From the NCBI GenBank assembly GCA_032718475.1, contig JAUCBJ010002497.1, positions 67,997 through 131,996 of the forward strand: a stretch of 64,000 bases of DNA, read 5' to 3'. The DNA comes from Nemertoderma westbladi. Its lineage: Eukaryota > Animalia > Xenacoelomorpha. The translations under genes and the position numbers were made by a program. Below, piece by piece: positions 20,970 through 60,393 of the stretch (position 1 is its first letter; each line of letters opens with the position of its first letter). The notes under the pieces were generated by a model. It worked only from the letters and a program-made list of their open reading frames with translations. It did no database searches and was not told the origin of the DNA.

Positions 20970-20980
20970 GTAGGAATATG
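20970..20980 (+). promoter_or_regulatory. Non-tRNA primer-binding site of C, complementary to its own LTR at 19931-19941
   Basis: GTAGGAATATG is the exact reverse complement of CATATTCCTAC. Confidence 0.8.
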
Positions 20981-27396: not shown

Positions 27397-30300
27397 CACA
27401 GTAGAAAGTGCTATAACAGTAACACATCAATTACGGGACTGTTTAGCAGGCGGAGGTTTTAACCTCACTAAGTTTGCCTCAAACAGCACTGAATTGGTAA
27501 ATTCATTCGAAACGACTGAACGTGGGGGTGGGGACATTGACTTAGAGTTCGAACCACTGCCGACGACCAAGGTGTTGGGACTATTTTGGGACCCGAACAC
27601 AGACAACTTTCGAGTGAAAGTAAAACTGGACGCTGAAGGAGATTCTCTGACAAAGAGGTCTTGCTTGTCGAAACTAAGCAGACTGTTCGACCCTTTAGGT
27701 TTCATCAGCCCAATAATACTGCAAGCAAGAATATATATGCGCAGTATTTGGAAAGATGGACTGACATGGGACGAACCGATCTCATCCGAACAAGTGGACT
27801 TATGGAAGACTTGGGAGGCGCAATTATCTTCGCTAGAGGATTATTCCATACCCCGGGTGTACTTTCCATTACAGACGACATTTCCTGACAACTTAGAATT
27901 ACATTGTTTTTCCGACGCCAGTGACAACGGCTTTGGTGTGACAGCGTACTTGCGCAGACAAGTAGACTCAGACGAGTTTGATATTTCGCTCATTACTTCT
28001 AAGGCTAAAACAATGCCTACTAAGTATATGACGACACCACGCGCTGAGCTACAAGCCGCAACTCTGTCAACGACCATTGTAAACCTCATACAGACGGAAC
28101 TACAGTCAAGTTTACAGATATTTTATTGGACTGACGCGACGTTAGTTTTATTTTATATAAACAACGACACACTTGAATTCAAGACATTCGTAGCTAACCG
28201 TCGTGCAGAAATTCTAGACCGTTCAATAAAGGAAGATTGGCGACATTGTCCCGGACCACAAAATCCAGCCGATATTGCGTCACGAGGAATGATGCCTGAG
28301 GAATTCTGTAAACCGGAAAACAAGAAATTTTGGCAACACGGACCACAATTCTTACAAAGAGCAACACAACATTGGCCGCCACTTTATGATAACAAGTTTA
28401 ATACTATTCCTAAGGACGCCGAAATTAAAAAACCAAAGAAAGGTAAAGCGAAGAAAAAGACAACGGCGAAACTTAAGAAGAAACCAAAGGCGAAATGGAA
28501 GAATATAACTCACAAAGTTAGGGCAGGAAGACTTGCGAGCCTTTCTCAACCAGACGTATCGCCAGACGGTCAACCAGACATGTTACCAGACGGTCAACCA
28601 GACGTATCGCCAGACGGTCAACCAGACACGTTACCAGACGGTCAACCAGATGTATCGCCAGACGGTCAACCAGACACGTTATTAGACGATCAACCAGACA
28701 TTTTGCCAGACGTGTCACTAGACGTTTTGCCGGATGTTCCGCGAAACATTTTACCAGACATTAGTAACGTAGCGACACATAGTAAAGCCGCAATTTCCCT
28801 ATTGGAGCGGCCTTCTATTGACAAACTACCAAACTTGACACCCTTGAGTAACCATAAGTACATTGAAACCTCATGTATTACAGATGTGGGTAGTACCTAC
28901 GCTAATGTAAATACAGGTGTTACTTTACGCTCAAGAGACATACCAAACTTACAACCTACGGTGAGACCTGGGATTAATATCGGCAGAAAAACAAATTTAC
29001 CGAAACCCAGTGATCCCATAGAGTTAAAACCACCATTAGGGATCGACGCACAAAGTACTGACAATCAAGGTAAGAAGACGAAGAAGGACAAATTACTTGT
29101 AGACCCGGACGGATCAACAGTCAACAAGGGAATACCTACCGGCGGACTCGTGGGCCCATCTAGTAAAACAAAACCTTCCAAATTCTCCATTGACTTACCT
29201 GATGACGTCACAAATACTTACGTCGACCGTATTGTAAACCTAACAGATTCTTGGACCAACGCGTGCCGAAAATTAGCGTGGATTGTACGTTTTGTACAGT
29301 ACGTTAAAGGCAAACGCGACTTTACACGTTGACTCACATTGACTGAGATTGACAGATGTGAAATTAAATTAATTTGCCATTATCAATTGCGATATTTCGC
29401 GCGCGAATTCACATCTATAAGTCAAGGTCAACCAATCAAGTCGTCACCAATATTGAGTTGGAGTCCGATTATTTATAATGGCTTAATTTGTCATAAATCT
29501 CGGCTTCAAAAATTGACTTTAATACTGGTTTTAGGTACCCAATAATAATACCGCAACATCACGAATTACAACGTGCAATGATACTGGACACACATTTACA
29601 TCTGAAACACGCTGGAAGACACCACTGTCTTTCCTACTTACGTACAAGATTTGTATTAATTAGACCCAGTAAAGCGTTAAGTTCAGTGACGCGTATGTGT
29701 ATTATTTGTAAAAAGGTACATTCTAGAATAAGTACCCAAGAAATGAGTGAACTTCCACAAGCACGACTACAGGCATTCAGACCACCTTTCACAGAGACTG
29801 GAATTGACTGCTTTGGTCCCATACATACGAAACGTGGACGTATACTAGTGAAACGCTGGGGACTGATTTTCACATGCATGTCCAGTAGGGCAGTTCATAT
29901 TGAACGTGTGATGGATCTTTCCACCAACGCCTTTATACTAGCATTGCGGCGATTTATCGCTAGACGCGGACTAGTAAAATGCTTGTACTCAGATCAAGGT
30001 ACAAACTTTGTTGGTGCTCGAAATGAAATTGCTAGAGCCTTTAAGAAATTAGATCATGATCAAATCTCAAACGAACTACGTCCTTACAAGATTGTTTGGA
30101 AGTTTAATCCTCCAGATAGTCCATGGAGAGGCGGAGTCTGGGAGAGATTGATTAGATCTATAAAAACAGCCATGGCAAAAGTAATTCCAGTAAACCACAT
30201 CTTGACAGACGACCAACTGACAACATTGTTTGTTGAAATCGAGGCAATACTAAATACTAGACCAATAGTATTAGTACCCGATGACAAACAATCCCAGTTT

Positions 30301-30729
30301 GCTTTAACACCGGCACACCTGCTTATGCAGGCACCGACCACATTAACGCCTATTTCTATTCCAATAGAAAGCGATAGCTACGGTAGAAAAGCGTGGAAAA
30401 TCACGCAACTACTGGCTAACAAATTCTGGGAAATATGGCAAAATCACTATTTGCCCTCTATTTCTGCCAGAACTACCTGGTACAACAAAACTCGCGCTTT
30501 AAGAGTGGGAGATCATGTGCTGTTGGCAGAAGTGAATCTAAAAAAACGCTTCTGGATAACAGGTGTAATTTTAGACACACATCCATCTATGGATGGAGTG
30601 ATAAGAACTGTGACTGTACGGACAATTGACGGTCGTACAGTAGACAGACCGACACAACGTCTCGTACTTCTTGAAGAGAAGCGAAACAAGTCTGGAGATT
30701 ACAAGTCTCCAACAAATGTTAGTAAATAG
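27390..30729 (+). pseudogene. pol: Element C RT C-terminus, RNase H and DDE integrase
   Basis: GGFNLTKFASN, KVLGLFWD, FDPLGFISP, LHCFSDAS, PRAELQAA, WTDA, NPADIASRG; integrase HLHLKHAG...CIIC, GIDCFGP, SDQGTNF, GGVWERLI. Stop at 29330-29332 and frameshift near 29520. Confidence 0.93.
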
Positions 30730-31388
30730 TAAGGAGTTTACAAATAGATTTCCACGTACCTGTACACCGTAGTAAGGACAGCGGTAGAATTCCATTGTCT
30801 TTATATGTGAACATTGATGGTAGTACCCTTATGTGTCACATAGGAGCGGGATTTGTAGGTATAAGAAATGGAATTCTACTTGGAACTCACAATATTGAGA
30901 CATTTTCGAAATTTTAGACAATCCATTTGGATTTGAAAAATTTTAAAATTTTCTCCAGTGAATAGATTTCAGGGTACAGTCGGGTGGATCTTAAAATTAG
31001 AGAAACAAGAAAGGAAGACTCGCGAGCCTTTCTTAAATTTTAATTAAATTTTACACGGTCTTGTTTCAATAAGTTACGTCGAATAATAGACTTCCCTATA
31101 TTTATTACTAACTCTTGATTGCTTATTTTCTGATAATAGTTTGGGATCAAAAAGTGAGTATTTTAGACTCACAGCCAGTTTAGCCCAAATTCGTTTTTAT
31201 TTCGGCAAAAAATTTTAGATAAGAAGCAGCGTGTCATTAAAGAAACTCTAGATCTTAGGCTATGGGTAGGAGGTTAGAGCGTTGTCGAGCCAAAAGGGCA
31301 GACGAAAACTCTCACATCTCCTCACAACTAACAATAAACTCTGTTGTATTCCCTCTAGTAGTATGATTATGTAACCATACCTCTAATA

Positions 31389-32160
31389 ATGGCGAAGGGG
31401 ATACAAGGAGAGCCGAGATGGGGATATGATATCCAAGAGGAAGCAGCAGCGCCATTCGAACGATTTGGAACTAAGGATTACACTATATTTGGAATAAAGG
31501 ATTTATCAGAAAGTATAGCGAAACTCGCAAAGACCAAATATGACTCAAATGTATTAAAGAGAAGGCAAAATGCGTTAAATGAAAAAATCGAAAGTTTACG
31601 TAAAACCTTCAATGAACTTTACCCGTACGACGCTTTATGTGATACGGGAGATATTAGCAAAGATCCCGATACCGAAATTAGTCGTTTGTATCATACTATG
31701 CAATACCTAAAGGCACATGAACCTATGCCCGCGGTACGCGATGAATTCGATGGAATGCATCTTTACAGACGAACTCGAGGGGACGATAGAGAAACAAAGG
31801 AAGCATTTTCAGTTTATAAACTTTATTATCAATGCGGTGCTTGTATGCGCGAACAACGAAATGCGATTTCGATGCGTTTAAATAAGGAAAATCCCGAACC
31901 GATATTGGTGAGGTGTTCGAACCATCAACAACTACGCTACCAGGAAGGAGGGTATCCTTTATCGAATCCATATCATTCATTCGCTATGACTGGACCAAAG
32001 GCGGGAGAAATTGTCGTTTACCCACCTAAGGTTGTTGAACCCGATGTATTCGAACTTACGCTGGACGAGGCGACTCAGTCAACCCGCGAAAAGAAAGAAG
32101 CTCTTAGCCTATACAGAGCCTACAAGGCTTTCGAGAAAGGCGAGATGGAAGAATGGGGCG
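31389..32160 (+). CDS. Element C accessory ORF3, N-terminal part (interrupted by element B)
   Basis: Removing B and one GGGCG TSD gives ...EEWGG RLASLPYHWTSHDQTSAKE MTPEVF..., in frame with the 963-aa ORF. Confidence 0.88.
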
Positions 32161-33373
32161 TGTAAAAGCCTTTGCTGAATTGCCCCGTTTTTTATATTAT
32201 CTTTTACATTAAAATACTCTGTAGTTGATTTAATAAGTGTAAGAGACCGTATTATTGCTGTATCGGTGTTTTTAGAGGATCTAAGACCTATTTCCTCCGT
32301 ATGTGTACTGTGAAAGGCATATTTTATGATTCTATGGCAATTCGTGACGCAAAGGGGTGATAGCTACTCTTGAACAGTAGTTACTATGACTACGGTTAAC
32401 AGCTGACATTCATACGTGTTGATTTCCTTTGTTCTACGGCGTCTCTCAGTTCAGTCAGCCAATGAGAGCGTTTTTGTGGCTCCTTGTACAGAAAATTTCC
32501 GAGAAATGACGCAATGCCTATGTGCAGTGTTTACATTCAGTCTTGAGCCAAAGAAAGAACGGCTTGGAAGTATTTTGTGCTGTACTGCTTTTTAGTCGTA
32601 CACTAGTAGGTTTAATTATAAAGGGCATATATCCTTTAACAAACTGACTACTTGAATATCTCATGCCTATATCTCATTGCTGACATACCGGTACTGACTT
32701 GTTGTTTTATACTGCTATTTGCTGTCAGTTCTTCATAATATGGTTGATGAATAATTATATTTGGAATAACGATAAATAACCCCGCAACCCAATATTCTTG
32801 ATATACCTAAGGTAAGAGAGAAAGGTTACCAATAACGATTGTGACTTATGTTAAAGTGGTTTGAAGTGAATCTAATGTTATTTGATAGACCCTACATGAG
32901 TCAGCCTGTGTTCCTTTTATATGTGACTAAAATCATTGAAGATTGGCAGATTAGTGTGCAGTATTGTGCAGCATAGTGTATGAGTGAGTCTGTTAAAGAA
33001 GCAATTCCTAAAGAATGCGCCATATATGTGAATTAATTAAGCCATATCGTTGTGAGTAGTTTAAGTCATAACTCTGTTTATGTAGATAAAGCGCCACGTC
33101 CTAAAGGAACTGTTAATATTACCGAAGGTGAATAATATTGTCAGAGATTATATAGTACTGTCAGTCGAATAATACATTAGGCTTACATAGCAATAAAAAT
33201 TAAACCGTCGAACCCAATCTCCCGGGAATATCCAGCGGGTGAATGGTCGCGCACGGATTGGTTTCGACTAGTGTAGTGAATCAAATACTTGTCATAGACT
33301 AAAAAGCGATTTATTATCTAGAAGACATTCTAATTTGGCGGGTTAAACTGCCAAAGGTCTGAAAGCGCGAACA
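32161..33373 (+). repeat. 5' LTR of element B (1213 bp)
   Basis: Matches 45062-46278. Confidence 0.97.
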
Positions 33374-33385
33374 TTAAAGGATATA
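33374..33385 (+). promoter_or_regulatory. Non-tRNA primer-binding site of B, complementary to its own LTR at 32628-32639
   Basis: TTAAAGGATATA is the exact reverse complement of TATATCCTTTAA. Confidence 0.85.
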
Positions 33386-36300
33386 GCTTCTTTATTGCAG
33401 TAAGCAATAAAGTCGAAAGTACCGGTCGACCGGTAACCAGTAGGCCTGACTGCCTGATCATCCGGACCGGTACCTACTTCCGTATAAGTACAGCAGTATT
33501 ATTCGATTTGATTATATATGCCGGTAGGTCTTAATAATTAATCGGGGACGCCTGGTTTTTATTGGGATTTTACTTAGGCCTATTTCTGTCAGTTTTATTT
33601 GTTTGTAGGCCAGTATTGAACAGAAGGCGTGTAAACCTGATCAGATTGTACAGACAATTTGTAGGCTGAGCTGTTGTCTGATTGCTGTTGAGTCCGAACG
33701 AATTGCAGTGTGTGTAGAGCACTTGTCCGATTAAGTACGATTAGGAAGTAGGGGCAGCCACGCTGTAAGGTAAACCCCCAACTAAAGAATAAGTCGCACT
33801 ACTGGGTTAGAGCGCATACTCCCTAATCATTTCGGAGTCTGCATGTCCTGTAGTTTATTTAGGCTTGAGAGTAGTCTGCCATCGTTTAGTCTGTACTTTG
33901 TTTGTGTAAGTCTGTACGGGTAGCGTATAATTTTATTTAGATAACTTGTAGGCTGGATAGTTGTCTGGCTGTTATTAGGTCTGAACGGATTGCCGCGTGT
34001 GTAGATCATCTGTCCGATTAAGTACGATTAGGCAGTAGGGGCAGCGAACGCTGTAAGGTAATCCCCCAACTAAAGAATAAGTCGCACTACTGGGTTAGAG
34101 CGCATACTCCCTAATCATTTCGGAGTCTGCATATACCGTAGTTTGTTTAGGCTTGATAGTAGTCGGTCAGTGTTCGGTCTGTATTTTGTTTGAGTAGTGT
34201 GTACGCGTAGCGTAATATTTATTATTCAGAGTTTATGCGATTATTCGCAACATTCAAGTCCCCAAGTTTGTTCCTACAGTAATTGTGTTTGTTATACATA
34301 CCGCTATAGTTAAATTAACCTCGGTACTACACGGGCTGCTCGGCGTAGGTAAAGACTGGTGATTTTGTGCATCGGTCACTCCAGCAGATGCCGTGGTTCT
34401 TTTAGCTGTTCAAGTATATTTAACTACTGATTATTTGTTGTACAAGTACTCGTACCTAATCTAGGGTTTAGTGTACCGTACTTTCCGAAGTAATTATTGT
34501 AGGCATTATATTTGTGTTGTAAAGTGGTTGATAGGCACATTCGATTAGCTCTATTAACTTCTAGGTAGGAACACTCCGTGATACATAACGTAGAACCTAT
34601 AGCGATACGGCTATAGGTCGTCAGGCGGTGGTATTTTCCTATCTAGACAACGCAGTGTATTTACTACTACTTATTATTTCAAATACCGTAGTACCCTGTC
34701 CGCTGTAATAATCAGATTTCTAACCCTTTGTTAGGCTGGTTTGTAGACTTCTTGTAAAATTACCCTAAAAATTCGTATTTTGCGTTTTTGTAAATTTTTG
34801 TGTTTATTTAGAGATTGTAATCTCAACCCGAATTGTACGTAATTTGTAGTATTAAGTAACTTAGGTAAATTAGTATTATTTGTTTTAGTGTCCTGTACGT
34901 AACACTTCACTGAAAGCGCACAGCTTTGTGTAGTGATTACTCCCCAGAAATAATAACATTTATTTCAAACATTGACAAAACCCATTAAAACGGGTATATA
35001 TAAATTATAAATCAAATCTAACGATTTATAAATAGTAGGCCTACCATATAACAATTAGGTCTCAATATCAGTTGGATTACTGCTCAAATAACGGTAATAA
35101 AGTAAGTAAAGTAACAAAGTAACCCTAAAGTAACAGAAATTCAATTATTTGAAATAATTGATATACCGGTATTTACGATAGGCCTATTATCTTTATTTCT
35201 ATAAATCTAGGCTGAAATTATACCGGTACTTGTAATTAATTCTATTTCAGAATTATATATCCTACAAACTGTAAGCTGTATACCGGTATTCCGATAGGCC
35301 TATTATATATTTATATATATTTGTGCTAAAATTATACCGGTATTCTGTGATAAACCTAGTCTGTAATAATACTTATATAGTTATATATACTATAAGTATA
35401 CCGGTATTCTAATATATTATATATATATCACGCTACACTGAGTAGCAGTAACGGTAATTAATTACTAGGCTATCAGTTAATACTGAGTTACTAGACTTGC
35501 TCAGACTGTAATACAGCAGTAGACATTCAACTGTACACACAAACATGTCTGACGCAAAGCAGAACCTGTCAGACAGTCTACTAGATACAACGGAGAGTGA
35601 AGCGACAGCAGAGAAACCGCATAAGAGGGATGCCATTGATATCTATCTGTCAGACTATCAGCGTTTTGTGGGAGATGAAGAGTTGAGGAGAAGGCTAGAG
35701 GGACTTAGCCCTAATAGCGAAGGAGCCAAACTTGTGTTAGATGCGATTGATGTGGATAGATTAGCGGCGAACCAAGCTAAATTCGATGAACAACTCCGCA
35801 TCGCTAGAGAAAGGGAAGAACAAGTAAAGAAAAAACGCATAGAAGACAGAAAGAAAGCAGCAGTGGTAGCTGCAGAAGCAGAAAGAAAGGCGGCAGCGGC
35901 CAAGGCAAAGGCGGCAGAGGTAGCGGCCAAGGCAAAAGCAGCAGAGGCAGCGGCAGAGGCAAAAGCGGCAGAGGCAGAGGCAGAGGCAGCGGCAGAGGCA
36001 AAAGTGGCAGAAGCAGAACGGAAAGCGGCTGAAGAAACCACCCAATTAGAATTGGAAAACATTCAGGAGAATCAAGACTGCATAAATAAACAGTTAACAG
36101 CTAGTAATATGCAGATGATGAATCGATCTACTCCTAAACGACAAGGTTATACATCATCCGAGGAAGGCGATACCACCGACACTGAAGGCGGAGTAAATCG
36201 ATCCCGCTTAAGCAGACGTAAAAGAACATTCCACCGACCGAAATTGCCTGATTTGCCTCCAGCTGTTAGAAGGCAACTAAATAACAACAACTTAGAGAGT

Positions 36301-38709
36301 ACAGAACCCACAGACCAAATAATTACAATAGAAAGACTCCCTACTATAGTAGATGAGCCTGAAATAATTAGGCCTGTTCTTGAAATCACCCCTTCGGTGA
36401 TAGACATACCTGTGCTCCCTGAAACTACCTCTAAATTCCCTCTGCATAGCACTAAGCTACCTGTGCCCCGCAGAACTGCCCAGGAGACAGTTCAGGTCCT
36501 GGACCCCGAGCGAAATATTCACAATTTGTCGCCCGTTGTCCCTCGTCCGCCCGCTACGACGTTGGCGGATCCCGTTTCGGCGGTTGATTGGGTAGACGAG
36601 AGACGGCGGGGGATGGATATCCTGCTCGGGCAGATGCAGGAGACTGTCCAGCAATTCAAGGGCACAGTAAGGGAAAGTAGGCTAGAGTTGCAAGAAGTGC
36701 AGCAAAGTATCGCGCTTGAACGCGATAAATTAGTAAACACCCAAAAGGGTATACCACCACCCTCTGTAACAATGTGTCAACCTGTTAGGTCTGAAGTATT
36801 GCATGCGCAAGGTGTGGAGCCTACACGCATATATACTGCTAGCGAAGTAGAAACTCCTATAGTGAACCCTATTAAGGGTAATTATAGACCTGTTGATAAT
36901 GACATTCCCTATAGACCTGATCATAATCCGAGAAATTTATATACCGATAACTCGATATTAAATAACACGATGGCCCAAGAAAGTTTTACGCGTCAAATGG
37001 CTAGAACCGAAGCCCGGCAAGCGGTGAAGGTGGGAGAGATAGTCAAATTCAATGGAGATGAGATGAAATGGTTACCTTTTAATTAATATTACAAAGATAA
37101 CATACAGAACTCTGTACTATCTAATGGAGAAAAACTTAGATACCTCATCGAGTGCTTGGAAGGATCTCCCAAGTTAATGGCGTTAAAGTTTATTGGACAT
37201 CCAGACGGATTAAGACAAGTTTGGGACACGCTAAACATCAGGTATGGTAATAGGAATAATATCGCTAAGTATTTATATGCAAAATTAGTAGCGCCCAGAA
37301 AGTTCATCAGCAGCGGGATAATAGAGTTTTCCGATGAGATTCAAGAGATCTGTAGACAATTAGATTGGTTAGGTAAGTCTCATGAATACCAAAGTTCTAT
37401 GGTCATTGGAGCTGTGGCTTCTACTTTACCGAAAGGTGGGGTAGGCACACGCTGGGATAAGAAAGTACTTTATATGATGGAACAACAATGACGAGACCCT
37501 ACCATGGCTGATCTCATGTCATTCTTAGATAGAGAAGTGAAATTACAGCTCCTAAGGCAGTCCAGAGAGAAGACATTGGAAAACAAGGTAAGTGAGAAAC
37601 CCGTTTCTAGGAGAAGGGTAATACCAGTATGTTATACCGACGACGGTGAAAGCCAAACTTCTCAAGGAGAGGACAGCGGGAAAGACACTGACAGAGCTTA
37701 TGTCAATAAAATGCCTAAAGATCAGGTAAGTAAATCCAAGTCTCGACCCAATGACAGAAGGGAACCGGTACAAAAAACCCCTCCTACGTCTCCTAAAAGA
37801 ATTCAGGTGAGAAAGCCCGAGGAAAGAACAAGTGTGCACCACATAGCACAGGTTAAAGTAAGTAACATCAAGCCCAAATGTGTGCTGTGCGACGGGCCCC
37901 ACCGTTTAAATGCGTGTGATAAATTCCTGAGGAAATCACTAAAGGATAGACGTGAAGTCATGTGGGATAAGCGGTTGTGTTATAATTGCCTCAGACGAGG
38001 ACACCAACGGCGAACCTGTAACTCCGACGCAAGGTGTGCAAAGTGCGGCGCAAAACATCATATCTTGTTGCACACGGAATTCGAACGAAACAGCCCGAGT
38101 CAGGTAAGTGAGTCCGAACTACATGTCCAATTCAGTGATGTGAACGACACTGATCAATCAGAGATGGAAGGATTCTATACGGACGAGTTCTCCGACCAAA
38201 ACGAATCCTGTTACCTAATAAACACCACCGCAGTGTATCGAGCACTCGTGTATGAGAAAGACACAGACAGCGACCTTACCTTAACTACTTCCGATCAACA
38301 ACCATCTTGGAAAGCGCCAACTTCCAATATAGGAATCCGAGAATTTCCTGTAGTCCAGTTACGGGTCCACGGACCTCAGAAGAGCTATATAGTGCACGCC
38401 CTCCTGGACTCCGGTAGCACAGGAACATTCATCGATAGGGAACTAGCCGAAGTCATCTTTGCTGGACAACCCAAGTTCCGAACCAAGCTAAACATGTCAG
38501 GGATCATGCAGGTTTGGAATTCTACTGTAGCTGCCGACTATTATATAGGTGAGTTGTCCACCCCCCAGGACGAACTAGGAGAACATAGCATCAGGTCAGT
38601 GAAAATGGTGGCTATAAAGAACTTCGCTACTACTCAAGCAGACCTTTATAATTGGGACGAGGATGAGAGCATCCAACATCTTAACATACCTCGATTCCAG
38701 ACTGATTAC

Positions 38710-41122
38710 TAGGGTGGAGTGAAAAAAAAATTTTTCTTTATTTTTAAGGGAAGCACTATTTTTCTGATGCCAAATCGGTCTAAACTATCTTTGCAAAAAA
38801 AAATTTTTGATTTCGAAAAATTCTAAGCGGGCCTCACGACACTTGAAAATTTCAAATTTTTGAAAAGGCAATGCCAGTTTTGAAAATCCCAGATATTTTG
38901 TATTTTTGATAAAGGTAAGGGAAGATGCAAATATTTAATGTCAAATAGGTAGGAAACAAAAACAAAATGTGAAATTGTGATTTTTATATAAATCTACCCC
39001 AGCCTCATGGCCATTAAAATTTTGCAAAATTTGCCAAATTTCACCCTTAAAATACAGCAAACCTACTTTGTAGTCTCTATAGTTGAAATCGATTTACTAC
39101 TGGGGTTTGGAGTTCTTCCTGAGTGAAAACCAAGTCCCCTGATTTGATTACTACTATATTTTAATACTAGAAACCCAGCTAGCTGGCTGTGAATTTACCT
39201 TTGGATCAAATTCCCAATAAGTATATTATAAACAACAGTACTGTAGGTATAGGAAGAAGGATAATTCTAAATTACGAAAACACTAGTAAAACAGTAAAGC
39301 AATAGAAAAACAGATGAGAAACACTGTAATGCACCAGGAAAAAGTAAAAATATTGATCAACAGGAAATTTAATACATGTATTACACTGAATTGGTATTCT
39401 TAAATGTACTCCTCGCATAGCACACCATTAAGTAATCTCCGTAAAACATAGGGACAACTATAAACTGTCCAGAAAACAGTGAAAACATGATTGGCATTAA
39501 ATAGCATTAAATTTTACCTAATATACTGCTAAAAAATAAGTTGACAGTGTCTAATACTACACAGAAACCATTGTTGCCCGGCAACCAAGGAACAGTAACC
39601 AATCAGCATGCATTTCAACAGTTTTACTGGTCAGCCGGTAGAGGCACATTAATGGTGTATTCTGGTATTAGTGTATTCCAGTATTCAAGTATTGTTAGTG
39701 TTGGATCTTGTCATCTGCTAAATGTTGAACAGTTAAAGTGCAGATGTTGCGGTATTTAATATTAAGACAGCAAAAGGGCCACAGTTAGGTCCTACCTACA
39801 GAGATACCGTAGTGAAGTGGCATACCAGTGTGGCTAGAAGCGCGGATGCAAGATCTAGAACACATCACACATGATGTTCTAGTCAGTTCGGTTTTCTGGT
39901 ATGAATGGTATCCTTAATAATAAATACCACAACTTCTGCACTTCAACTGCCAACATTTAGCAGATGAATTGATCTAACACTAACAATACTGGAATACACT
40001 ATGTAATTCCAGAATACAGCAACACAGGTACTACTGGCTGACCAGTAAAACAAGGATAGTGCTGAAATGCATGCTGATTGATTTCTTCTTTCACCTAGTA
40101 TTATTAGCAGCATATCAAGCAAACAGTTGAGGCGACCCGAAGGCTCCTCTTTCGATAGATGCTACCGAGGGTAGGGGTGGGCACTACTATTATCCCAAGA
40201 TTTGCTCCTAGTTATTTAACTGGTACTCAATTTATCGACCCCAGTGGATGAAAGGCGACTGAGTGGACCCTGGTGGGGCTGAACCTACAACCAATCGATT
40301 GCAGGCCTGGTGCTCAGCCAATTGAGCTACCCCGCTTTCTAGCGAAATATAGGTAAAATTTCACAGTTGTCCAGAGGGTTTATAGTGTTTTCCCTATGTT
40401 TTACGGAGATTACTTAACGTGTGCTATGCGAGGAGTACATTTAAGATTGCCAATTCAGTGTAATCGATGTATTAAATTTCCTGTTGATCAATAATTGTAA
40501 TGTTTTTCATATGTTTTTCTAGTGCTTTACTGTTTTACTAGTGTTTTCCTAATTTAGAATTATCCTTCTTCCTAGACCTAGGCCTACTGTTGTTTATAAT
40601 ATACTTTATTGGGAATTTGATCCAAAGGCAAATTCACAGCCAGCTAGCTGGGTTTCTAGTATTGAAATATAGTTGTGATCAAATCAGGGGACTTGGTTTT
40701 CACTCAGGAAGAACTCCAAATCACAGTAAATCGATTTCAACTATAGAGACTACGAAGTAGGTTTGCTGTATTTCTAGGGCTAAATTTGGCAAATTTTGCA
40801 AAATTCTAAACGCCATGAGGCTGGCAGGGCTGGGGTAGATTTATATGAAAATCACAATTTCACATTTTATGTTTGTTTCCAACCTATTTGACATTAAATA
40901 TTTGCATCTTCCTTAACTTTTATCAAAAATACAAAATATCTAAGAAATTCAAAACTGGCAGTGCCATCCCAAAAATTTGAAATTTTCAAGTGTCGTGAGG
41001 CCCGCTTAGAATTTTTCAAAATCAAAAATTTTTTTTTGCAATGTTAGTTTAGACCGATTTGGCATCAGAAAAATAGTGCTTCCCTTAAAAATAAAGAAAA
41101 TTTTTTTTTTCACTCCACCCTA
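38710..41122. mobile_element. Non-autonomous hAT-type (hATm-like) foldback element
   Basis: Termini TAGGGTGGAGTGAAAA and TTTTCACTCCACCCTA; 8-bp TSD CTGATTAC (38702-38709, 41123-41130); arms of about 1 kb, nearly palindromic around ~39850. Confidence 0.93.
40117..40336 (-). mobile_element. tRNA-derived SINE with Nin/Deu-like central domain
   Basis: Head GCGGGGTAGCTCAATTGG...GGTTCAGCCCC; core ACTCAG..CCTTTCATCC...GGGGTCGATAAATTGAGTACCAG; absent from the opposite arm of the foldback. Confidence 0.8.
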
Positions 41123-43697
41123 CTGATTACCCTGGAGTGCAAATACTCATCGGCCAAAACGCGCATGAGGCGCTGGAGACATTAGAGAAACGGCCTGCTC
41201 AACCGCAGCCCCTACAGACCTATGCGGTAAGAACTAGAGTAGGTTGGTACCTTACTGGACCTTCCCGTAGAACGCTCAGGGAAAGACTGCTTCAAGATCG
41301 CGTCTGCCAGGTGAGTGAATGGGAAGATGATACTAGTGAGGGAGACGACCCAACTGAGGGAACACCACACTCCTCAGATAATGACAATCTTAGCTCCAAT
41401 GTAGATCAATGGAGATATTGCCCCAAGAAGTTTAATCCAACGGACATCGCTTCCAGAGGAGCAACTCCTCAAGAACTGACAGATACTATAGACCGGTTAG
41501 GTGAACCCGACTTCCTGAGTAAGGAGAATGAATGGCCTCCCCATCTTACTCCGACTGAGATTAGACCAGCCAAGGGAGCGGAGAAAGTCGAACCTGAAAC
41601 CCGGACGGGTGGATCGGAGTTATTTGAACCCGGGATAGATCTGTCGGTATTACATGTTGCCAGGGACGACGCCGTGGATCTGGGCCTCCCCTCCGCGAGT
41701 GGATCCTTCATGAAGATCAGAGAGAGCGATTGGAGCTCTGGAACATCAGACGTCTCGCAGGGACTCTCACCTCTCCTGCAGAGAGCGACGGACCACTATA
41801 GCTCCTGGAATCGGCTTTGTGACGCCGTCATATACTTTGAGCGATGTTTCTATCGTCACTATTCCAGGACGAAGAGGAAACCTGGAATTGTATTCAGGAT
41901 GCAGCGACTCAATCACCCAGTCGGTCGTTTGTGTTTATCGGAAGGGAATGGAGGACTCTCCGGAAACTGTGGAAGGCAAGATTCTCTTCCCACGACCACC
42001 TCCCTAATCCTTCAAACATCTAGGGACTCCATAACGTAACAACATACGGAGTGGGTGTGTGACTCTATTATTTTATATTATTTTATTATTTTTATATTTA
42101 TGTATGTATTACTATGTAATTCTATTATAATCGTTTTCTTTAATTTTATTCAGTAGAATGTTATTTTAGCGATTATTTAGTAGATTAGTGCAATATATAT
42201 TCGCGTTTATTACTTAATTACGTATATATTATATTTAATGCGACGGCAAGAAATAATTCTTTTCCTTCTTCCTTACTGTCCGTATTACATTACAAATACG
42301 TAACTACAGTAAGATGAAATGTCCGTACTTATTAAAGTACGATAAAGCCACTACTATATTCAAGTATTATTGGTAGGCAGAGTATTAGGAATGCAAAGTT
42401 CAGATCCTCGTGTCTCGGCTAAACCAAGCTCTGGGTAGACCTTGGAAACGACTTGCCTCTTCACACTGACATTGCTTCGTGCGATATTGCTCTCATACCG
42501 TATATTAAATAATACATATAGTAGCGTGATGTCCCTTTAACAGTAGCGTATAACGCAAAATAAATCTGTTAAACCCTTTGACCATCTGTAATTCTAGTCG
42601 ATTAAGATATCGCGGCACCCACCGATATACTTGAAAGACAAATTCTAGAATCAGTGGTTAACGTCCCCAGACAAGTTCTGGAATAAATCGGTGCCCATCT
42701 CAAATATTAATTAATTAATATTTGCAAAATCTAATAAATCAAAATCTGTAAAATTCAGATCCTTCAATAATTCTAGTCAATTAAGATATCGTAGTATTTA
42801 CCGATATTCTTAAAAAGACAATTGTCATAGAATTAAGGATCTTGTGTCCCCAGACATGTTCTGGAATCCAAATATGTCCATTTAATTATCAAATAATAAA
42901 ATTTCAGGGAATCAATTTAAATTCATGCCTTTTAATGAATTTAATAAATTGCCATTTTTACGCAATTTATAAAGTTCCCAAAATTCCATTAATTAATAGA
43001 TCAAGGGAGCGGAGATTTATCTTAGCATGCGTATGAGTGTACGAAAGTCTCCCAAACATAGTCAATAGCCGATAAAATTCATAAAGTCATGTATAAAACA
43101 GAACATTGACTATTAAAGAATTACTATTAAATAACATCCCAGATCTGTATGCATTGGAATCACCCTAATTCTACCGCTAGCTTTGCATAATGTCACCATA
43201 GCAACAACCACGCTAGAATTAGAATTGAGTTAAAAGAACAATAGAAAGCTTGTCCCATTGAATAGCATAGGGAATAAATAGCGCACTACTAGTATCCAAG
43301 GATACATAATAATACAGTGACATTCTGGAAGGCATTGACTAACGGACAAGTGACCCGAGTGTGTGTAATTTGTGACAAGTTGTGTGTGTGGTACTTGTGA
43401 GCTTATAGGCGAATGTTACTACTAAGGTGTGTTTACAGTAGCAAGTCGCAATCGTAAAGTAACCTAACTCTCCAAGGAAAACCTGAAGTACATCTAAGCC
43501 TTTGGGACGGACAGTTGAGTGACTTGTGCCGGTTGTCGTTGTCGTTGTGCGGCTACGTCGTTGGCGAAAGTACAGCGGCGACGACACATCGGCGCTGAGG
43601 ATCTCGTACTGTCCGGGGGTTAATTGGAGTAGGCAGCGACGCCCGCTCGCCTAAATGTGGACTCATTATAATATGGACAAACTCATATATAGCAGAT

Positions 43698-44950
43698 ATG
43701 ACGGAGTTGATAGAAGATGGTCTTGGTATCGGGGAGCGATATACTCTACTTTTGCAAGCGTTTGTTGATAGCTTAATACGCGGCGACGTTAGTCCAACTG
43801 CTGCGGAGGACGATGGTCGTTATATCGAACCGCCAAGGTCCCAAGAGCAGCTCACGCGTGAGTTGGACTATAGAAAATTCGCTGCTCGATATACGCAGCG
43901 TAATGGTACGTATATGGGCTTCTTAACTACTGGTCATCCTATCGATTTACACAATACGGACTATGTCGACTATATATCCTGCCCAGCGGAGTCGGAACCA
44001 TAAACTGAAATTCGAATGCGAAAATTCTATTCGAAATCGACTCGAAAGAAAAGACACTAAAGAAACAAATGGACGCGGTAACTCCAACGTATATTTGGAA
44101 TTCTTGATAGAAGCATTGTAACAACAAATAAATATCACCCGCGTTTACCTTACCAGACGTGCGTCTTTGGTATTATTACGATAAATGCCCTAGACCCAAC
44201 TAATAAACGGAAAGACATAAACATCCACGTAAACCGAAACTTGTTGACGTATCACCTATGCTCACTCGGCTCGAACGATCCTGGAGTAAACCTACGATCA
44301 GAGTCCCGGAATACTCGGTCAAACCTCCTCATTCCTTAGTTGGACCTCAGACCTGCGATCTTGGTGGTGTCGCGGATCCTCGCGGACTGTATTCACTGTT
44401 CAAAGATCTAGTGCTACCCTAACAATTAATCGGTAACACTCCGACAGTGATTTCTAGCTAGCCGCCCATCTTACCTAGCCGGATTGTGACGCGGACACCT
44501 AATATCACTACCCAACCGTATGGTCGTCCACGTTTAACGCGATACAACCCCTCATCAAGGTGAAGGAGAGCATTGTACGAAACGAGTTAAACGCTATTTT
44601 ATAAAGATCAAAAAGGAAACCTGCGTTTGTTCAGATAAACGTAAGTTATAACAGTGAGTCCAATCGATACACGAATTGGCCTTATCTCAATTCGATTGGG
44701 AAATCCAGAATCTCTAAGAAGTTATCGAACTTGGACAATCCTATTCTCTGCGAGAGTTTTTGGATGAACGTATCCAGCTACGAGCGGAGGAAAATCAGCT
44801 CGAGGAGAAGCATATCGAAACGGCAGATACTTCGACCACAATCCTACACCTTCTGATGCAATCATATTGCACCCTTCACCCAGGAGTTATGGCCCTCCTA
44901 GTAAAGTGGCTCCCCCCAAAGAGAAAAGGACTCTTGCTAGCCTCAAAAAA
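43698..44950 (+). pseudogene. Degenerate accessory ORF of element B, homologous to 15100-16412
   Basis: MTELIEDGLGI...DDGRYIEPP.SQEQLTRELDYRKF; downstream AEENQLEEKHIE. Confidence 0.6.
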
Positions 44951-45061
44951 CTGCGTAAACGCCGTCTGCGTAAGAAAGACTAACTGTTTAGAGTATCTTT
45001 ATGTTTTAGAAACTGTGATTTTTATATTTTATAGACTGAAAATCCCATTTTCTGGGAGCGG

Positions 45062-46278
45062 TGTAAAAGCCTTTGCTGAATTGCCCCGTTTTTTATATTA
45101 TCTTTTACATTAAAATACTCTGTAGTTGATTTAATAAGTGTAAGAGACCGTATTATTGCTGTATCGGTGTTTTTAGAGGATCTAAGACCTATTTCCTCCG
45201 TATGTGTACTGTGAAAGGCATATTTTATGATTCTATGGCAATTCGTGACGCAAAGGGGTGATAGCTACTCTTGAACAGTAGTTACTATGACTACGGTTAA
45301 CAGCTGACATTCATACGTGTTGATTTCCTTTGTTCTACGGCGTCTCTCAGTTCAGTCAGCCAATGAGAGCGTTTTTGTGGCTCCTTGTACAGAAAATTTC
45401 CGAGAAATGACGCAATGCCTATGTGCAGTGTTTACATTCAGTCTTGAGCCAAAGAAAGAACGGCTTGGAAGTATTTTGTGCTGTACTGCTTTTTAGTCGT
45501 ACACTAGTAGGTTTAATTATAAAGGGCATATATCCTTTAACAAACTGACTACTTGAATATCTCATGCCTATATCTCATTGCTGACATACCGGTACTGACT
45601 TGTTGTTTTATACTGCTATTTGCTGTCAGTTCTTCATAATATGGTTGATGAATAATTATATTTGGAATAACGATAAATAACCCCGCAACCCAATATTCTT
45701 GATATACCTAAGGTAAGAGAGAAAGAAAGGTTACCAATAACGATTGTGACTTATGTTAAAGTGGTTTGAAGTGAATCTAATGTTATTTGATAGACCCTAC
45801 ATGAGTCAGCCTGTGTTCCTTTTATATGTGACTAAAATCATTGAAGATTGGCAGATTAGTGTGCAGTATTGTGCAGCATAGTGTATGCGTGAGTCTGTTA
45901 AAGAAGCAATTCCTAAAGAATGCGCCATATATGTGAATTAATTAAGCCATATCGTTGTGAGTAGTTTAAGTCATAACTCTGTTTATGTAGATAAAGCGCC
46001 ACGTCCTAAAGGAACTGTTAATATTACCGAAGGTGAATAATATTGTCAGAGATTATATAGTACTGTCAGTCGAATAATACATTAGGCTTACATAGCAATA
46101 AAAATTAAACCGTCGAACCCAATCTCCCGGGAATATCCAGCGGGTGAATGGTCGCGCACGGATTGGTTTCGACTAGTGTAGTGAATCAAATACTTGTCAT
46201 AGACTAAAAAGCGATTTATTATCTAGAAGACATTCTAATTTGGCGGGTTAAACTGCCAAAGGTCTGAAAGCGCGAACA
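45062..46278 (+). repeat. 3' LTR of element B (1217 bp)
   Basis: Matches 32161-33373. Confidence 0.97.
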
Positions 46279-46283
46279 GGGCG

Positions 46284-49234
46284 GAAGACTCGCGAGCCTA
46301 CCTTACCATTGGACGTCACACGATCAAACTTCAGCTAAGGAGATGACACCGGAAGTTTTCGAGAGTATAAACTTTGCTCAAAACGTTATTCAGAGACTAC
46401 AGATTGCATCCCTGGAAAGGACAAGAGAAATGCAACCGTATAGTACTTCAACTACGAAACCATTGAGTACGACACTCAATTTCCCTATTAGTATACCAGT
46501 TCGACAAGATACAACGTATGAAATACCTATTGTGGATCATCCGGAAATCATTTCGAACTTAGAGTTTCTTCCTGCAGTTGTTCTAAGCGATATGGTTAAG
46601 ATATATGATTTACGTAGACATATTACGCAAAAGGTCGTGCATAATGTTCCGCCTCATATTCAAGACTTTAGGGAACTGGATAGAGCTGGCGCTGATATAG
46701 CTCCGAGTAACCTGAAAGGATATTTAACCAAAACAATTCGCTTATGGATTGGAACAGGAACCTTTGAGTCGGATACAGATATCGCTGCGGACTGGCAAGG
46801 TAAAGTCATTCGTTTCGAGGACGAGAAAGACATAGAGAAGATTTGGCAACCTTCGGAAGAATTATTGGACGAATGGAATAGGACGTTTAGATCGTTTCAG
46901 GAAAACGGTTACATGTTTTATGATAACGAGGGCGGCAGCCATCAGCAGAGTCTAACCTCCAAGACTATACAAATTAGAGCGGCAGACGGAGTTTTGCACA
47001 TTTTCAGTAGACAAAGGAGCGACAAGCGAATGCCAATACCTCCAGGAACTACAAAGCGGCACCATTTCATCACAAATATAGTAAAGAAAATGGACCAGGC
47101 TTGCAATATCGATGCTAAAATGTTACCAAAGACGGTGAGAAATATGATTTTAGATAAAACTGTTGTAAAGATTGGATCAGGAGTAAGAGAGGACTTAATT
47201 AGCGACTTCGCCGGCATTTCGGACAGTGACGACCGATTACCGACACCTTACGTCGACACTCGACCTCTTATACTGTGGTCTATAGAACAAGGATACTTTC
47301 GTGAGTATGATACTCAGAAAACCGGAACTGGATATATTTCCTACTTGATGTTTAATTGGGATTACAAGGAAAGTAAAAGAACAAAGTATATCGAAACGTA
47401 TGGAGAAGGTGATACTCCAGATATAAATGAGTTTGAATCACAGCTCAAATGGAGAGGATGCGTATATTGGGCTATTACTTCACCTCCAAGAGCCATACTA
47501 CAATATTATTTAGCGATAGAGTCATCAGTGAATGTTTGCTTAGTCGCCGACATTGTGTCTCGGACTCTTAAAAGACATCCACTTTGCCTCGGAGAAGATC
47601 ATACATTCCACGCGGAAGGGAGAATTCATACCGATGTGTTTAGATGGTTTCTCGAACCCTTCTACAATTCCGACGCTCAGTGTAATGCCTTCACTCGAGC
47701 AGGATTCAGTATATTTCGAGACGTGTATCTTCGCTGTGCGGGATCTCTTATCGAAAGACCATCTATGTTTACATTGTTACCCTATGAAGGAGAACGTATC
47801 ATGGAGCTTACTGACGAATCACGGCAGACGCGTGCGCCTATCGGTCACTTAGGTGATGATTTCGAAGTAACGACGGCCATCGATGATCCTTTAGAGGAAC
47901 TTCTTGAGATTGAAAGGAACCTCCCGAAGAAATCTCAGGCGGAGATTCGACAACTAGAAGCAACAGATGCTGTAGTTTGCATACAACCTTCTGAAACATA
48001 CCAACCTATCGACCCAGACGATTATGACTATAGTGTGGGAGGAAGCGCTCGACCCATTGGCGATCTTATATATGAGCGAGTGTGGTACCCTGCTAATACG
48101 ATGTGTGGTAAATGTGGCGTCGCTGGACATCATTCAACAAAGTGCAGTGGAAAGCACATTACTACGACTCAACTGATTTGTGGGTGGTGTGGAGATCAAG
48201 GGTCCCATACATTTTATACTTGCTGGAGATTTATGGCTCAATGCACATATTGCAATATAAAGGGACATCGAGCATCTGAATGCCAACTGAGAGACATACC
48301 TTACGAACACGAATCTGTAAAACTCGTGCGAAAACTATTTGATGAGTGGGAAGATTTGGCTGACGAACATGTAGCAGCGCAAAGAAGACGGTTCCCGATG
48401 AGAGCGCATCTTGGATTTTGGGTGGTAAATCCTCAAACTATGATGTCGGAAGGATATATCTCCGCTATGCCGCAATATGACGAACTCATCGAGGTAGTTG
48501 ATATTTTGCCTCACGATAGTGGATTCCGAGTTGTGCGCGAATATTTGTTACAGATACACCCTGACAATAAGAATACATGGAATTTCCAGAAAGTCGTTAA
48601 TCGTATCACCTATGGTGAATTTGATCGGTTCCGAACGGAAAAGCGGAACAAGGGAGCTTGGTTAACCGTTGCATGGGCGTACCGAGCCGCGTTCTACCAT
48701 AAACGTATACGAGCGAGCGTATTCGAGGAAGAGGAGGTCCTAGAGGCGAACAACATACCAGCTACTCCGGTCGCGCCATCTGCACGTCACCCTCGGGAGG
48801 ACGGACAGCACAAGATCATACGGGTCCAGAAAGTGGGCCAACAGTTAAAGAAAACTATCAACGTTGAAGAACGAAGGGGATACGAACCGACTATTCGAAT
48901 TACTCGGGATACGGTTTCGCTTCCCAGAGAACCGCAAGGAGGATCGGGACATATACCAGCTGATCAAAAGGGGGCGCAAGCTTCTCTTGGGTCTGCGTCG
49001 TCCGCTTCTCGCGCGTTCCCAGACGTTTTACCAGCGGTAGATACAACAGATCGGTCACGAGGGATTGGACGAGGATTTGGGATAACTAAGAGACGAATAT
49101 GTGAGGAAATGGTCGTACCATCTCCCAACGTCCAAAGTAATCCAGTGGCTCGCCCCACAAGTCCCATATCACGAGCTAAATCGCCGATACGCAGTTTTCG
49201 AGGACGCGGCAGGGCTCGATCCGCTAAGCGTTAA
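46284..49234 (+). CDS. Element C ORF3, C-terminal part: DEDDy/RNase D-like 3'-5' exonuclease, three CCHC knuckles, basic tail
   Basis: ExoI-like FYDNEG, TIQI, LPKTVRNMILDKTVVKIGSGVREDL (ExoII-like), YVDT, ExoIII-like YLAIE; knuckles CGKCGVAGHHSTKC, CGWCGDQGSHTFYTC, CTYCNIKGHRASEC; Arg/Ser-rich end. Confidence 0.75.
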
Positions 49235-49880: not shown

Positions 49881-50164
49881 AGTAGTATTAGTATTTGTGA
49901 TTGTTTGAATTCATGCAATATTTGAGATGCAATAGATTTATTTTAGTGAATTTAATTTAGATTTATATTGTGCTTACTTAATAAAGCCTTAAATACGTAA
50001 AGTTTGAATTTGTAATTATTTGTATCGAATTATTATGTAAAGGTATTATTGTTGAGATCTAATTTGTAAATATGTAAGTACGTCCCAAGTATTCTATAGT
50101 TTGCTTTAGTATTGGTGAAAACCGTATATTTTATGCACAATAATATCCTGTTTTCATGGAGCGG

Positions 50165-52001
50165 TATAGAATTATATTCTCTAAATGGCGTGGATTTTCA
50201 AAATTTTATTTTATTCGAATTAACTTTGTTATAAAGATTACATTAAGTCCTCATTTGTATTTACTATATCTATTTGTACGATGATTATTCAAGTGGTTCA
50301 GTAGCTCAGTCGGTAAAGCGTTGGAAATTATATGTAGTAGGTATTGAGTTCGAATCCTTGTAGGTGCGAATTATTTTTTGTGCAGAATTTCAACTCATTT
50401 AAATTGACCACTACAAATTAAATTGCATTTGCCTGTACCTAGATTAACCAATGGGACTGTAGTTATTAGATAGTAACCAATGTCGTGCAAGTTGTATATT
50501 CGCTGGACCAATAGTTATCTTTAAAAACCTATTAGAACTCATAGAACAATCGAGAATTTTCTCGATTGATTGCAGCACAAATTTGCTATATAAGGTGCGA
50601 TTTCGTTCATTAGTTATTCTAATTAGTTTATAATCTTTTGTAATAAAAGTTAGAAATACTTGTTACATCTGCCCTTTTCTATCATGTTTTACTACGGTGA
50701 ACTTAACTGAGGGACAAGATGGCAGGCTAAACATCGGGCCACAGCAGTGAACGGGAACATCTGAGGAATGTAGACAGGAGACAACCCGCAATATCATTCT
50801 TGAGTTATTCGCCCATCGCCTGAAAGGTTAGACAGCGTTCAATGCCTTGCTACCTAAGTATAAGACCAAAGATCGAAGGTAGAGGTAGTGACACGCTGTG
50901 CGCTAAAAATTACATCTAGGGACCGTACTGTCTTAATTCAGAGAAAACCCGCGGTAGACCTTCATATTCCTACGGGGGAGAGGAGAGCAGGCAGAGATAC
51001 TAGTACACAGATAGGACGTAGGCACACCGGTACAAGGCATACACATTGGTAGGGTGCAGCAAACTGTACGCCTAACTCTTGCCAAGTACAGGTGCATCTG
51101 TGACTATTTGTAGTACAACGGTGTCCATTGCATTAGAACTTGTAGGCCAGAAGGGTTACTGTGTTTTACATGAATTAGGATTGTACCGTTCAGGCGGTAG
51201 GGCAGTTTACAACTAGGCGCAAAATAAATTGAGGCTATTTAGGGATACTAACATCTACCGTGTCCCCGCCAACATTCTGTTAGGAAGTTGCCGTACCCAT
51301 CTAGGCAACCAAAATTCTAGATAGGAACACCAGGCTAGCTATTAGTAACTGTACGTCTACTGTAGTAAACTAACACATTTCTTCTTAGTATTAGGGACCT
51401 GGTAAATTAAATTGCCGAATTCTGGGCGTAGTATTAACCTTATGCCTGAATTTGAGTCCTGGAAATACAAAAAAGGGAAGGAGCCTTATCATTCGTGAGT
51501 ATTGGACCTACAAGTTACAAAATTAGAATATTCGTAAAATGTACACCGGACCCAGTAATTATATATATGAAGGAGCAAAACTGACTTTGACTGTTTAGAA
51601 TTAACACGCGCGTGTTAGAAATTATTTACACCTCAAAATACATAAAATTAACTTTTGTCCGTACTGCGCTTTGCCCGCTAGTTAGACATCTCTAGATCTC
51701 TGCACCTAGCTAGCGTCTTTTTCGCCCAACCATATAAATCACACAGCGGCAAAGTATACGAGCGCCGTTAGTCCGTCAGTGAGTCAGCCTGATTTTAGGA
51801 TTCGCTGCGCGGGATTTTGTTTTATCGAAGTTTGTCCGTTCGTAGACTGTTTTCTGCCTCACCGGTTATAAGAGACCGATACTGCAATATATATTCGCTT
51901 ACTTGGAGTTTACTGTTTTGGTGAGAAGGTCGGATTATGATTTGATTCACAAACTTTACAGTAGGATATTGCAGGGTATTTTGTTACTGTCTCTTCGCAT
52001 A
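50165..52001 (+). repeat. 3' LTR of element C (1837 bp)
   Basis: Matches 19133-20969. Confidence 0.95.
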
Positions 52002-56253: not shown

Positions 56254-56265
56254 TATAACTGTTAT
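56254..56265 (-). promoter_or_regulatory. Non-tRNA primer-binding site of A, complementary to its own LTR at 56990-57001
   Basis: Minus-strand ATAACAGTTATA pairs with minus-strand TATAACTGTTAT in the LTR (also at 14595-14606). Confidence 0.85.
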
Positions 56266-59950: not shown

Positions 59951-60393
59951 AGTCACTACTACTAACTGTAGGGACATTTCGCTACTATTAATACCTTAAA
60001 ATTTTGAATTGTTGATTATTATTTATATGCCTCAAATTTGCAGAATACCAACAAAGACATGGAAATGATAGACCTAGCTATGGTGATTCACGCGGGAGAG
60101 GTTGTACAGATATTATATTCGCTCTACTGTTTCTAGTCGGGGTCCTATCGTATTTCGGTGTTATATTCTTTGCTTACGCCGTTGGAAATCCAATTAGACA
60201 GTTCTATCCAACTAATTCAGAGGTTTGCCATAAATACATATAATATGCGAATGATAAAAAGATCATAACCATGTAAAGTAGGCCTACTTTGCAACTGGCT
60301 TTAATGCTACATAAGCCTATTTTGAACTGTAACATGCGCTTTTGACTCTGGTTTATTGTTTTGGTTGGAATAATATAACCTCGTCACGTTGAC

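Follow-up and report, generated by a model that had tools for sequence, protein, structure and literature searches.

A predicted DEDDy exonuclease with zinc knuckles as the third gene of a BEL/Pao retrotransposon in Nemertoderma westbladi

Introduction

As far as the accessible text of the original reports goes, DEDDy-type exonucleases are encoded in a third open reading frame (ORF3) by the bdelloid gypsy-like retrotransposons Juno1/2 and Vesta2/5, and also by Athena/Terminon elements (PMC5408684, PMC6431247). The same text states that long terminal repeat (LTR) elements of bdelloids gained such ORFs at least two times, that the Penelope-like Terminons carry them as well, and, for the Vesta ORF3, mentions only a Cys-His-Cys motif; the available part of another paper restates ORF3 exonucleases as known (PMC5718144). 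The layout of Trypanosoma brucei RNase D (TbRND; PDB 7C42), an exonuclease (Exo) domain followed by an array of CCHC zinc knuckles, is termed very unusual in the accessible part of its report. According to that text, single-stranded RNA is bound by these knuckles at positions 5–6 from its end, and they strongly raise cleavage and are required for both RNA binding and cleavage (PMC7797062). Here, we describe a gene with a comparable predicted layout, ORF3 of the BEL/Pao element A, in a 64,000-nucleotide stretch of the Nemertoderma westbladi genome (GCA_032718475.1, contig JAUCBJ010002497.1, positions 67,997–131,996 of the forward strand; hereafter, the window, from whose first nucleotide all positions are counted).

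In the literature searched, published exonuclease third genes are confined to gypsy-like elements of rotifers and to Terminons. An earlier note on this DNA, made from the sequence alone, had named these precedents, which the papers cited above confirm, and no such gene in BEL/Pao. We likewise found no exonuclease ORF3 in BEL/Pao in the literature searched (most subscription papers, supplements, Repbase and Dfam lie outside this scope), and the word exonuclease is absent from the main text of the papers on the BEL/Pao elements Tas and Cer7 (PMC554778, PMC3118150). As far as these searches reach, the BEL/Pao host superfamily, the nuclease subtype and the three-knuckle array are new compared to the known exonuclease ORF3s.

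Results

ORF3 is a third gene of element A split by a nested insertion

Three nested LTR elements lie in the window, with C interrupted by A (19133–52001) and A interrupted by B (32161–46278). Upstream of B, an ATG at 31389 opens a stop-free 5′ piece of ORF3 (31389–32160, plus strand; 257 codons plus one base), which has no known family, and downstream, a 3′ piece of 983 codons plus stop (46283–49234, plus strand) is open from 46283 to the TAA at 49232–49234 in the frame predicted by the 5′ piece. Given this base composition, a stretch of 983 open codons would arise by chance with a probability of ~1e-26. A 5-bp duplication, GGGCG, flanks B at 32156–32160 and 46279–46283, and excising B joins the two pieces in frame, as the earlier note had proposed, into 257 + 983 = 1240 codons. 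ORF3 is a single third gene of A, which belongs to a multi-copy BEL/Pao family, and is split in this copy by B.

The gene occupies the env position, starting 659 bases past the integrase stop and ending 930 bases before the 3′ LTR. The top 19-residue hydropathy values, 0.59 in the 5′ piece and 1.39 in the 3′ piece, speak against any membrane segment or signal peptide, which agrees with what the earlier note had read from the sequence. An env identity was rejected for ORF3, given that it has neither a signal peptide nor a membrane anchor. A site resembling a splice acceptor (31327–31358, plus strand), with a branch point, a run of pyrimidines and an AG, ends 30 bases before the ATG; by a rule defined after this site had been seen, it is the sole such site on the plus strand of A (three on the minus strand) and is equalled in 57 of 5000 shuffled spacers. 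The acceptor-like site at 31358 suggests that ORF3 is read from a spliced sub-genomic RNA. The 5′ piece also contains a CX2C-X22-CX2H motif (31833–31925), a possible zinc finger.

The earlier note had argued from an ORF3 that is intact while pol is damaged, and this argument fails: four lesions in the 9-kb gag-pol of A predict 1.66 in ORF3, so that zero lesions besides B are within chance (P(0) = 0.19) and intactness carries no weight. Host co-option of ORF3 as deduced from intactness was rejected for the same value (P 0.19).

Copies without the insertion exist in public DNA

Four public DNA runs (X1–X4) under one organism label, from at most three samples and three studies and one of them possibly the source of the window, all contain the family. 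Four contigs of run X3 extend upstream of 46279 by 20 letters, of which 19 equal the end of the 5′ piece, and a 1887-base contig of run X4 (~90% alike) aligns from 46279 and has 708 more letters upstream. Since these contigs run from the 3′ piece straight into the 5′ piece sequence or further upstream, copies of A without B exist. Three contigs cross the nuclease region without a gap; with 1179, 981 and 550 letters aligned, they show 118, 165 and 84 differences (83–90% alike), and one further contig of 649 letters has a gap. Among the best 40 of 525 variants, a choice that favours well-supported ones, ORF3 contains none of the 12 indels listed (of 81), and silent changes make up 11 of the 22 listed ORF3 substitutions, compared to 6.4 expected (509 of 20000 simulations). 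Because the counts cover these 40 variants and carry that bias, the evidence for selection on ORF3 is modest.

A predicted DEDDy domain shared with two unnamed proteins

Three proteins among 1.84 billion representatives (P0001, P0002 and P0003) reached E ≤ 0.001 with ORF3; P0001, a coffee protein, matches the knuckles alone and was dropped as a relative. P0002 and P0003 are ENA entries without a name, from contigs 7.5 and 11.3 kbp long. Both share the whole core with ORF3 at 23–28% identity (pairwise E 6e-13 and 2e-11), and identities among the three sequences range over 23–32%. The two proteins keep the motifs DxE, K.GS...D, D.Q/R, G.G and YL..D/E; after these come an acidic linker, the three knuckles and the conserved domain behind them.

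Profile, feature and motif comparisons predict a DEDDy 3′–5′ exonuclease domain at 46802–47581 (plus strand), and we hold it very probable that this domain has a DEDDy fold of the EXD2/WRN type. The motifs YDNEG (46919), VKIGSGVREDL (47165) and YYLAIE (47504), as well as three knuckles (48104–48283), are found where the earlier note had reported them. The active-site candidates are D471, E473, D561, Y666 and E670 in whole-ORF numbering (46922, 46928, 47192, 47507 and 47519, respectively). The D-x-E of ExoI, expected where strand 1 ends, is present, with YDNE of ORF3, VDTE and FDVE aligning with FDTE of 16 bacterial WRN-like proteins, and the ExoII aspartate is present in KIGSGVRED, which aligns with KVGVGCSED of EXD2, and also in the bacterial profile comparison. 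The Y-x3-D position of ExoIII holds D in P0002 and E in ORF3 and P0003.

PF01612 accounts for 24 of 30 Atlas feature matches, which score up to 0.92 and are led by three fungal clusters without a name, although scores of 0.9 are also reached by 4–10 per 100 shuffled proteins. For the nuclease, a profile of the three-sequence family placed human EXD2 first among 177,635 PDB sequences (E 0.01; two hits with E ≤ 10). A profile–profile comparison with the bacterial WRN-like proteins aligned 114 columns over ExoI–ExoII (64%, E 6.5e-5); this bacterial profile (A4) aligns 16 of 20 loci, and the E-value comes from one chosen comparison with a family picked by the analyst. The Atlas model of P0002 (pLDDT, predicted local distance difference test, 0.44) matched clusters that carry PF01612 in all 10 rows, none of which reached the threshold at which the tool assigns a family, with template modelling (TM) values of 0.73 and 0.70 to stand-alone exonucleases, which describe the relative's model and not that of ORF3. 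Single-sequence PDB searches with ORF3 gave nothing useful, PHROGs gave no significant match, and the family profile A3 scored 2% against E. coli RNase D. Over 401 bacterial genomes, A3 gave 25 matches at E ≤ 1 (best 0.005), which we read as chance. No related loci were found in JGI metagenomes or IMG/VR, and tblastn against phages and plasmids gave chance matches or none. Word-based searches, which cover near lengths only, returned no match for the 3′ piece, nothing for alignment A1, its own members included, and only itself for P0002.

The glutamate at ExoIII (YxxxE for YxxxD in ORF3 and P0003) also bears on activity, as do ~45 additional residues ahead of ExoIII in ORF3, an EXD1-like cluster among the Atlas hits of P0002 (0.80), and the dead derivatives that the accessible text of the bdelloid ORF3 paper mentions. 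All of these would suit a dead or weak nuclease fold that binds RNA like EXD1 or Maelstrom and serves as a scaffold for element RNA or PIWI-interacting RNA (piRNA) factors. We judge such a scaffold unlikely, because the four acid positions and the tyrosine are conserved in all three sequences despite their low identity, P0002 has the canonical D, and the bdelloid ORF3s also vary (DEED) and are read, in the same accessible text, as possibly active. Given that P0003 has E too, the glutamate is family variation and not decay of this copy; a literature search on tolerance of a D-to-E change at ExoIII did not find the term D501E. On the sequence evidence, the domain is probably active.

The knuckles and the size of element A

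Three CCHC zinc knuckles follow the nuclease domain on the plus strand (48104–48145, 48179–48223 and 48242–48283), the second being one residue longer (CX2CX5HX4C), and behind them lies a conserved unnamed domain common to P0002 and P0003 (48305–48563, plus strand; F/W-E-x-x-A-D-E/Q). The combination of a WRN/EXD-type DEDDy domain with three knuckles, first read by eye in the earlier note, is thus recovered by the Atlas features, the EXD2-first profile match and the two relatives. Against the PDB, the family profile ranks TbRND first, by way of the knuckles (E 0.0037), and a TbRND-like cluster heads the Atlas feature matches of P0002 (0.87; a lead only).

With B taken out, element A is 18,746 bp long, roughly double what is usual for BEL/Pao elements (4.2–10 kbp in the accessible text of PMC3118150). 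Such an oversized genome could profit from an enzyme acting on DNA or RNA:DNA hybrids, by editing the 3′ ends of complementary DNA (cDNA) or proofreading reverse transcription; EXD2 and WRN-like proteins are the nearest nuclease matches, and DEDDy enzymes can act on single-stranded DNA according to the available part of the bdelloid ORF3 paper. However, ORF3 is a separate gene outside pol, knuckle arrays point to single-stranded RNA, and the sequence evidence bears no sign of ORF3 packaging, which together leave cDNA editing or proofreading improbable.

Element A and a private motif that runs through ORF3

The LTRs of A (5′ LTR 19133–20969; 3′ LTR 50165–52001; both plus strand, 1837 bp) are 98.9% identical (20 substitutions apart), and a 5-bp target duplication, TTTAT, is clean on both flanks. 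Both LTRs have TA...TA ends in place of TG...CA. BEL/Pao LTRs usually end in TG...CA, but this is not strictly defining. The gag-pol (21778–30729, plus strand) has the BEL/Pao domain order of DUF1759, Peptidase_A17, Integrase_H2C2 and DUF5641 by Pfam, and because it carries DUF1759 (E 5e-10), Peptidase_A17 (E 1e-42) and DUF5641 (E 6e-22), we classify A as a BEL/Pao LTR retrotransposon from its predicted domains. It is broken at four places (stop at 23776–23778, frame break at ~27374–27396, stop at 29330–29332 and frame break before 29497), and a YxDD motif was not found in any frame at the break in the reverse transcriptase (RT; ~27374–27396). A tRNA-like stretch seen by eye near the start of the LTR (19263–19335; D-arm-like plus GTTCGAATCC) gave nothing with ARAGORN or Rfam.

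A nearly palindromic 16-base motif, GGAAGACTYGYGAGCC, has 11 copies (21866; five at 23600–24035; 28526; 31013; 46283; 49256; 49820), all on the sense strand of A and none elsewhere, compared to 0 expected. The copies occupy different frames and non-coding parts, often at domain borders and ahead of tandem repeats, and occur in gag-pol, ORF3, the ORF3 spacer and the 3′ untranslated region of A. Because the motif runs through all of these, it ties ORF3, the spacer and the 3′ untranslated region to gag and pol. None of the six copies folded (6/6) showed an unusually stable hairpin, and a protein-binding, packaging or template-switch site is possible. The insertion point of B directly adjoins one copy.

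The private motif also bears on whether ORF3 belongs to A at all. A wrong fold assignment, or an ORF3 that is a passenger host gene or a separate insert useless to the element, might be argued because no single test is decisive, P0002 and P0003 are known as proteins only, and the linkage of integrase and ORF3 is known from this copy only. Set against this are the agreement of motif order with four partly independent searches, the lack of introns and of inverted or target repeats around ORF3, the passage of GGAAGACTYGYGAGCC through the gene, and a frame kept in copies 83–90% alike, so that we rate both possibilities as quite unlikely.

The nested elements B and C

Element B (32161–46278, plus strand; LTRs 32161–33373 and 45062–46278) ends in TG...CA, and its LTRs differ by one substitution and four gap columns in 1217. 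B retains remains of gag and protease and is related to C, which lies on the minus strand (LTRs 13871–14997 and 56266–57403). When the proteins of A are compared with B, matches are confined to gag, protease and a single short stretch further on, and comparison with these proteins gave no RT, integrase or ORF3 match or remnant in B or C. Apparently lacking RT and integrase, B and C may be mobilised in trans. The LTRs of A and B are unrelated, yet the polypurine-tract-like end GGAGCGG is common to both elements (50155–50164, plus strand, in A; 45051–45061, before the 3′ LTR of B). The protease region of B is interrupted by an inverted repeat of ~800 bp with an inner pair (38696–39484 and 40359–41136; 88% alike), which is probably a further insertion. 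Elsewhere in the window, a non-LTR reverse transcriptase, spread over two frames (60374–62564), is presumably RTE-like by its motifs.

Self-complementary primer sites

The primer-binding site of A (20970–20980, plus strand) is of the self-complementary type and pairs with a segment of its own LTR (19931–19941, plus strand; LTR position 799–809) over 11 anchored nucleotides, a match found in 0 of 2000 shuffles; the duplex extends to ~18 pairs (−21.8 kcal/mol). Similarly, the primer site of B (33374–33385) pairs with its own LTR at 32628–32639 and that of C (56254–56265) with its own LTR at position 403–414, each over 12 nucleotides (0 of 2000 shuffles in both cases). The three sites differ in their letters, cross pairs between elements reach only 4–6 bases, and the matched letter changes between the primer site/LTR pairs of B and C are a covariation signature of tRNA-free priming in BEL/Pao-related elements. 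On these pairings we regard the self-priming signature of A as real.

The earlier note had linked the two features: ORF3 would trim element RNA until the LTR/primer-site duplex is reached, which would make the 3′-OH for reverse transcription. The primer site of A does pair with its own LTR, and this part of the proposal stands. The LTR has TATA-like sites at position 423 and from 1396 and none just before 799, and its sole TATA/initiator pair upstream of 799 (423/446–450) is far from the paired segment, which is probably not the first bases of the RNA, unlike in Tf1; the primer 3′ end would therefore have to come from cutting or trimming. B, which has the polypurine tract end of A and apparently no RT or integrase, could borrow ORF3. 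However, B and C self-pair with other letters and lack ORF3, Tf1 needs no enzyme but RNase H to make its self-primer in the accessible account (PMC7175516), and self-priming is common in groups for which no such gene is described. B and C do not refute primer trimming, because elements without RT and integrase matches may borrow proteins, but the role given to ORF3 did not gain from these results, and we consider it doubtful. In its fullest form, the idea has a very large, tRNA-independent BEL/Pao lineage encoding a knuckle-guided exonuclease that finishes a self-RNA primer. This would be the first enzyme for primer maturation that an element encodes; it would act in trans for short families such as B and C and would found an unnamed family with P0002 and P0003. 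This, too, we consider an unlikely outcome.

Discussion

Our leading, though tentative, interpretation is that ORF3 is a DEDDy exonuclease whose knuckles help it trim single-stranded RNA ends and that it serves A against host RNA surveillance. Its starting point is one frame at the env position within the LTRs of A, unbroken in other copies where B splits it here. Like an env gene, this frame would be read from a spliced sub-genomic RNA that uses the acceptor at 31358. For its middle, the predicted fold is that of a two-metal nuclease of the EXD2/WRN kind having D-E-D-E and Y, and the knuckles, following the TbRND analogy, would hold single-stranded RNA 5–6 bases from its end and pass it to the active site. 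The least supported step concerns the targets, which might be host small RNAs or the untemplated tails that mark element RNA for decay.

Several results weigh against this interpretation, beginning with the step to host RNA targets, which comes from analogy alone. The last acid of the nuclease is E instead of D. Besides the shuffled-protein background of the Atlas scores, the analyst's choice behind the bacterial comparison and the sub-threshold P0002 structure matches, ExoIII was unaligned in that profile–profile comparison, the bacterial profile was not significant against the single ORF3 sequence (40 of 2000 shuffles reach its score), and ORF3 has no significant Pfam or NCBIfam match to its nuclease. 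AlphaFold gave no usable model of ORF3 (pLDDT 32 alone and 30 with a three-row alignment), so that the DnaQ-like fold suggested in the earlier note is backed by the profiles and the P0002 model and lacks a model of ORF3 itself. In addition, contigs of runs X1–X3 skip 46387–48598 (~2210 bases), the entire nuclease and knuckles, which defines a deleted copy class.

We rank the trimming of RNA ends against host surveillance first and primer maturation second, because repeated capture of DEDDy enzymes by unlike elements suggests a general benefit and not a role specific to priming. Below these two come, in descending order, the dead RNA-binding scaffold, cDNA editing, and a wrong fold or passenger gene. 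A BEL/Pao case would show repeated capture of one enzyme class, arguing that it solves a general retroelement problem. The solved and assayed TbRND layout, together with a defined candidate substrate in the LTR/primer-site duplex, makes the role of ORF3 directly testable in vitro.

Compared to known systems, the bdelloid ORF3s resemble that of A in being separate ORFs after pol that are DEDDy-type, have a changed acid, no membrane segment and no function shown. The ORF3 of A differs from them, in a comparison by description only, in its BEL/Pao host, which is neither gypsy-like nor Penelope-like, its DEDE rather than DEED residues, its 1240 codons, its three-knuckle array and its long unnamed N-terminal part. 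Tas and Cer7, as far as the accessible text of their papers shows, also have a third gene after integrase in BEL/Pao (PMC554778, PMC3118150), but theirs is an env with a fusion protein, whereas ORF3 is a predicted enzyme lacking a signal peptide or membrane segment. Tf1/sushi elements share with A a primer site complementary to their own LTR over 11 bases, but Tf1 relies on RNase H and on the 11 bases at the start of its RNA, whereas the segment of A is at LTR position 799 (PMC7175516, accessible text). With EXD2/WRN-like proteins (PF01612; PDB 6K17), ORF3 has in common the ExoI F/Y-D-x-E, the next strand, the ExoII K-x-G-x-x-x-x-x-D and a later D; it differs in insertions after strand 3 and before ExoIII, in YxxxE, in its knuckles and in scoring below the Pfam threshold. 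TbRND has the same succession of a 3′–5′ Exo domain and a CCHC knuckle array, whereas ORF3 has three knuckles and not four, a longer acidic linker, an extra conserved domain behind them, and is a mobile-element gene. The Exo part of TbRND scored −1.5 bits, and TbRND is not among the matches of the Exo-only profile; ORF3 is therefore not a TbRND member by Exo sequence kinship, but its predicted layout indicates that it would work like TbRND.

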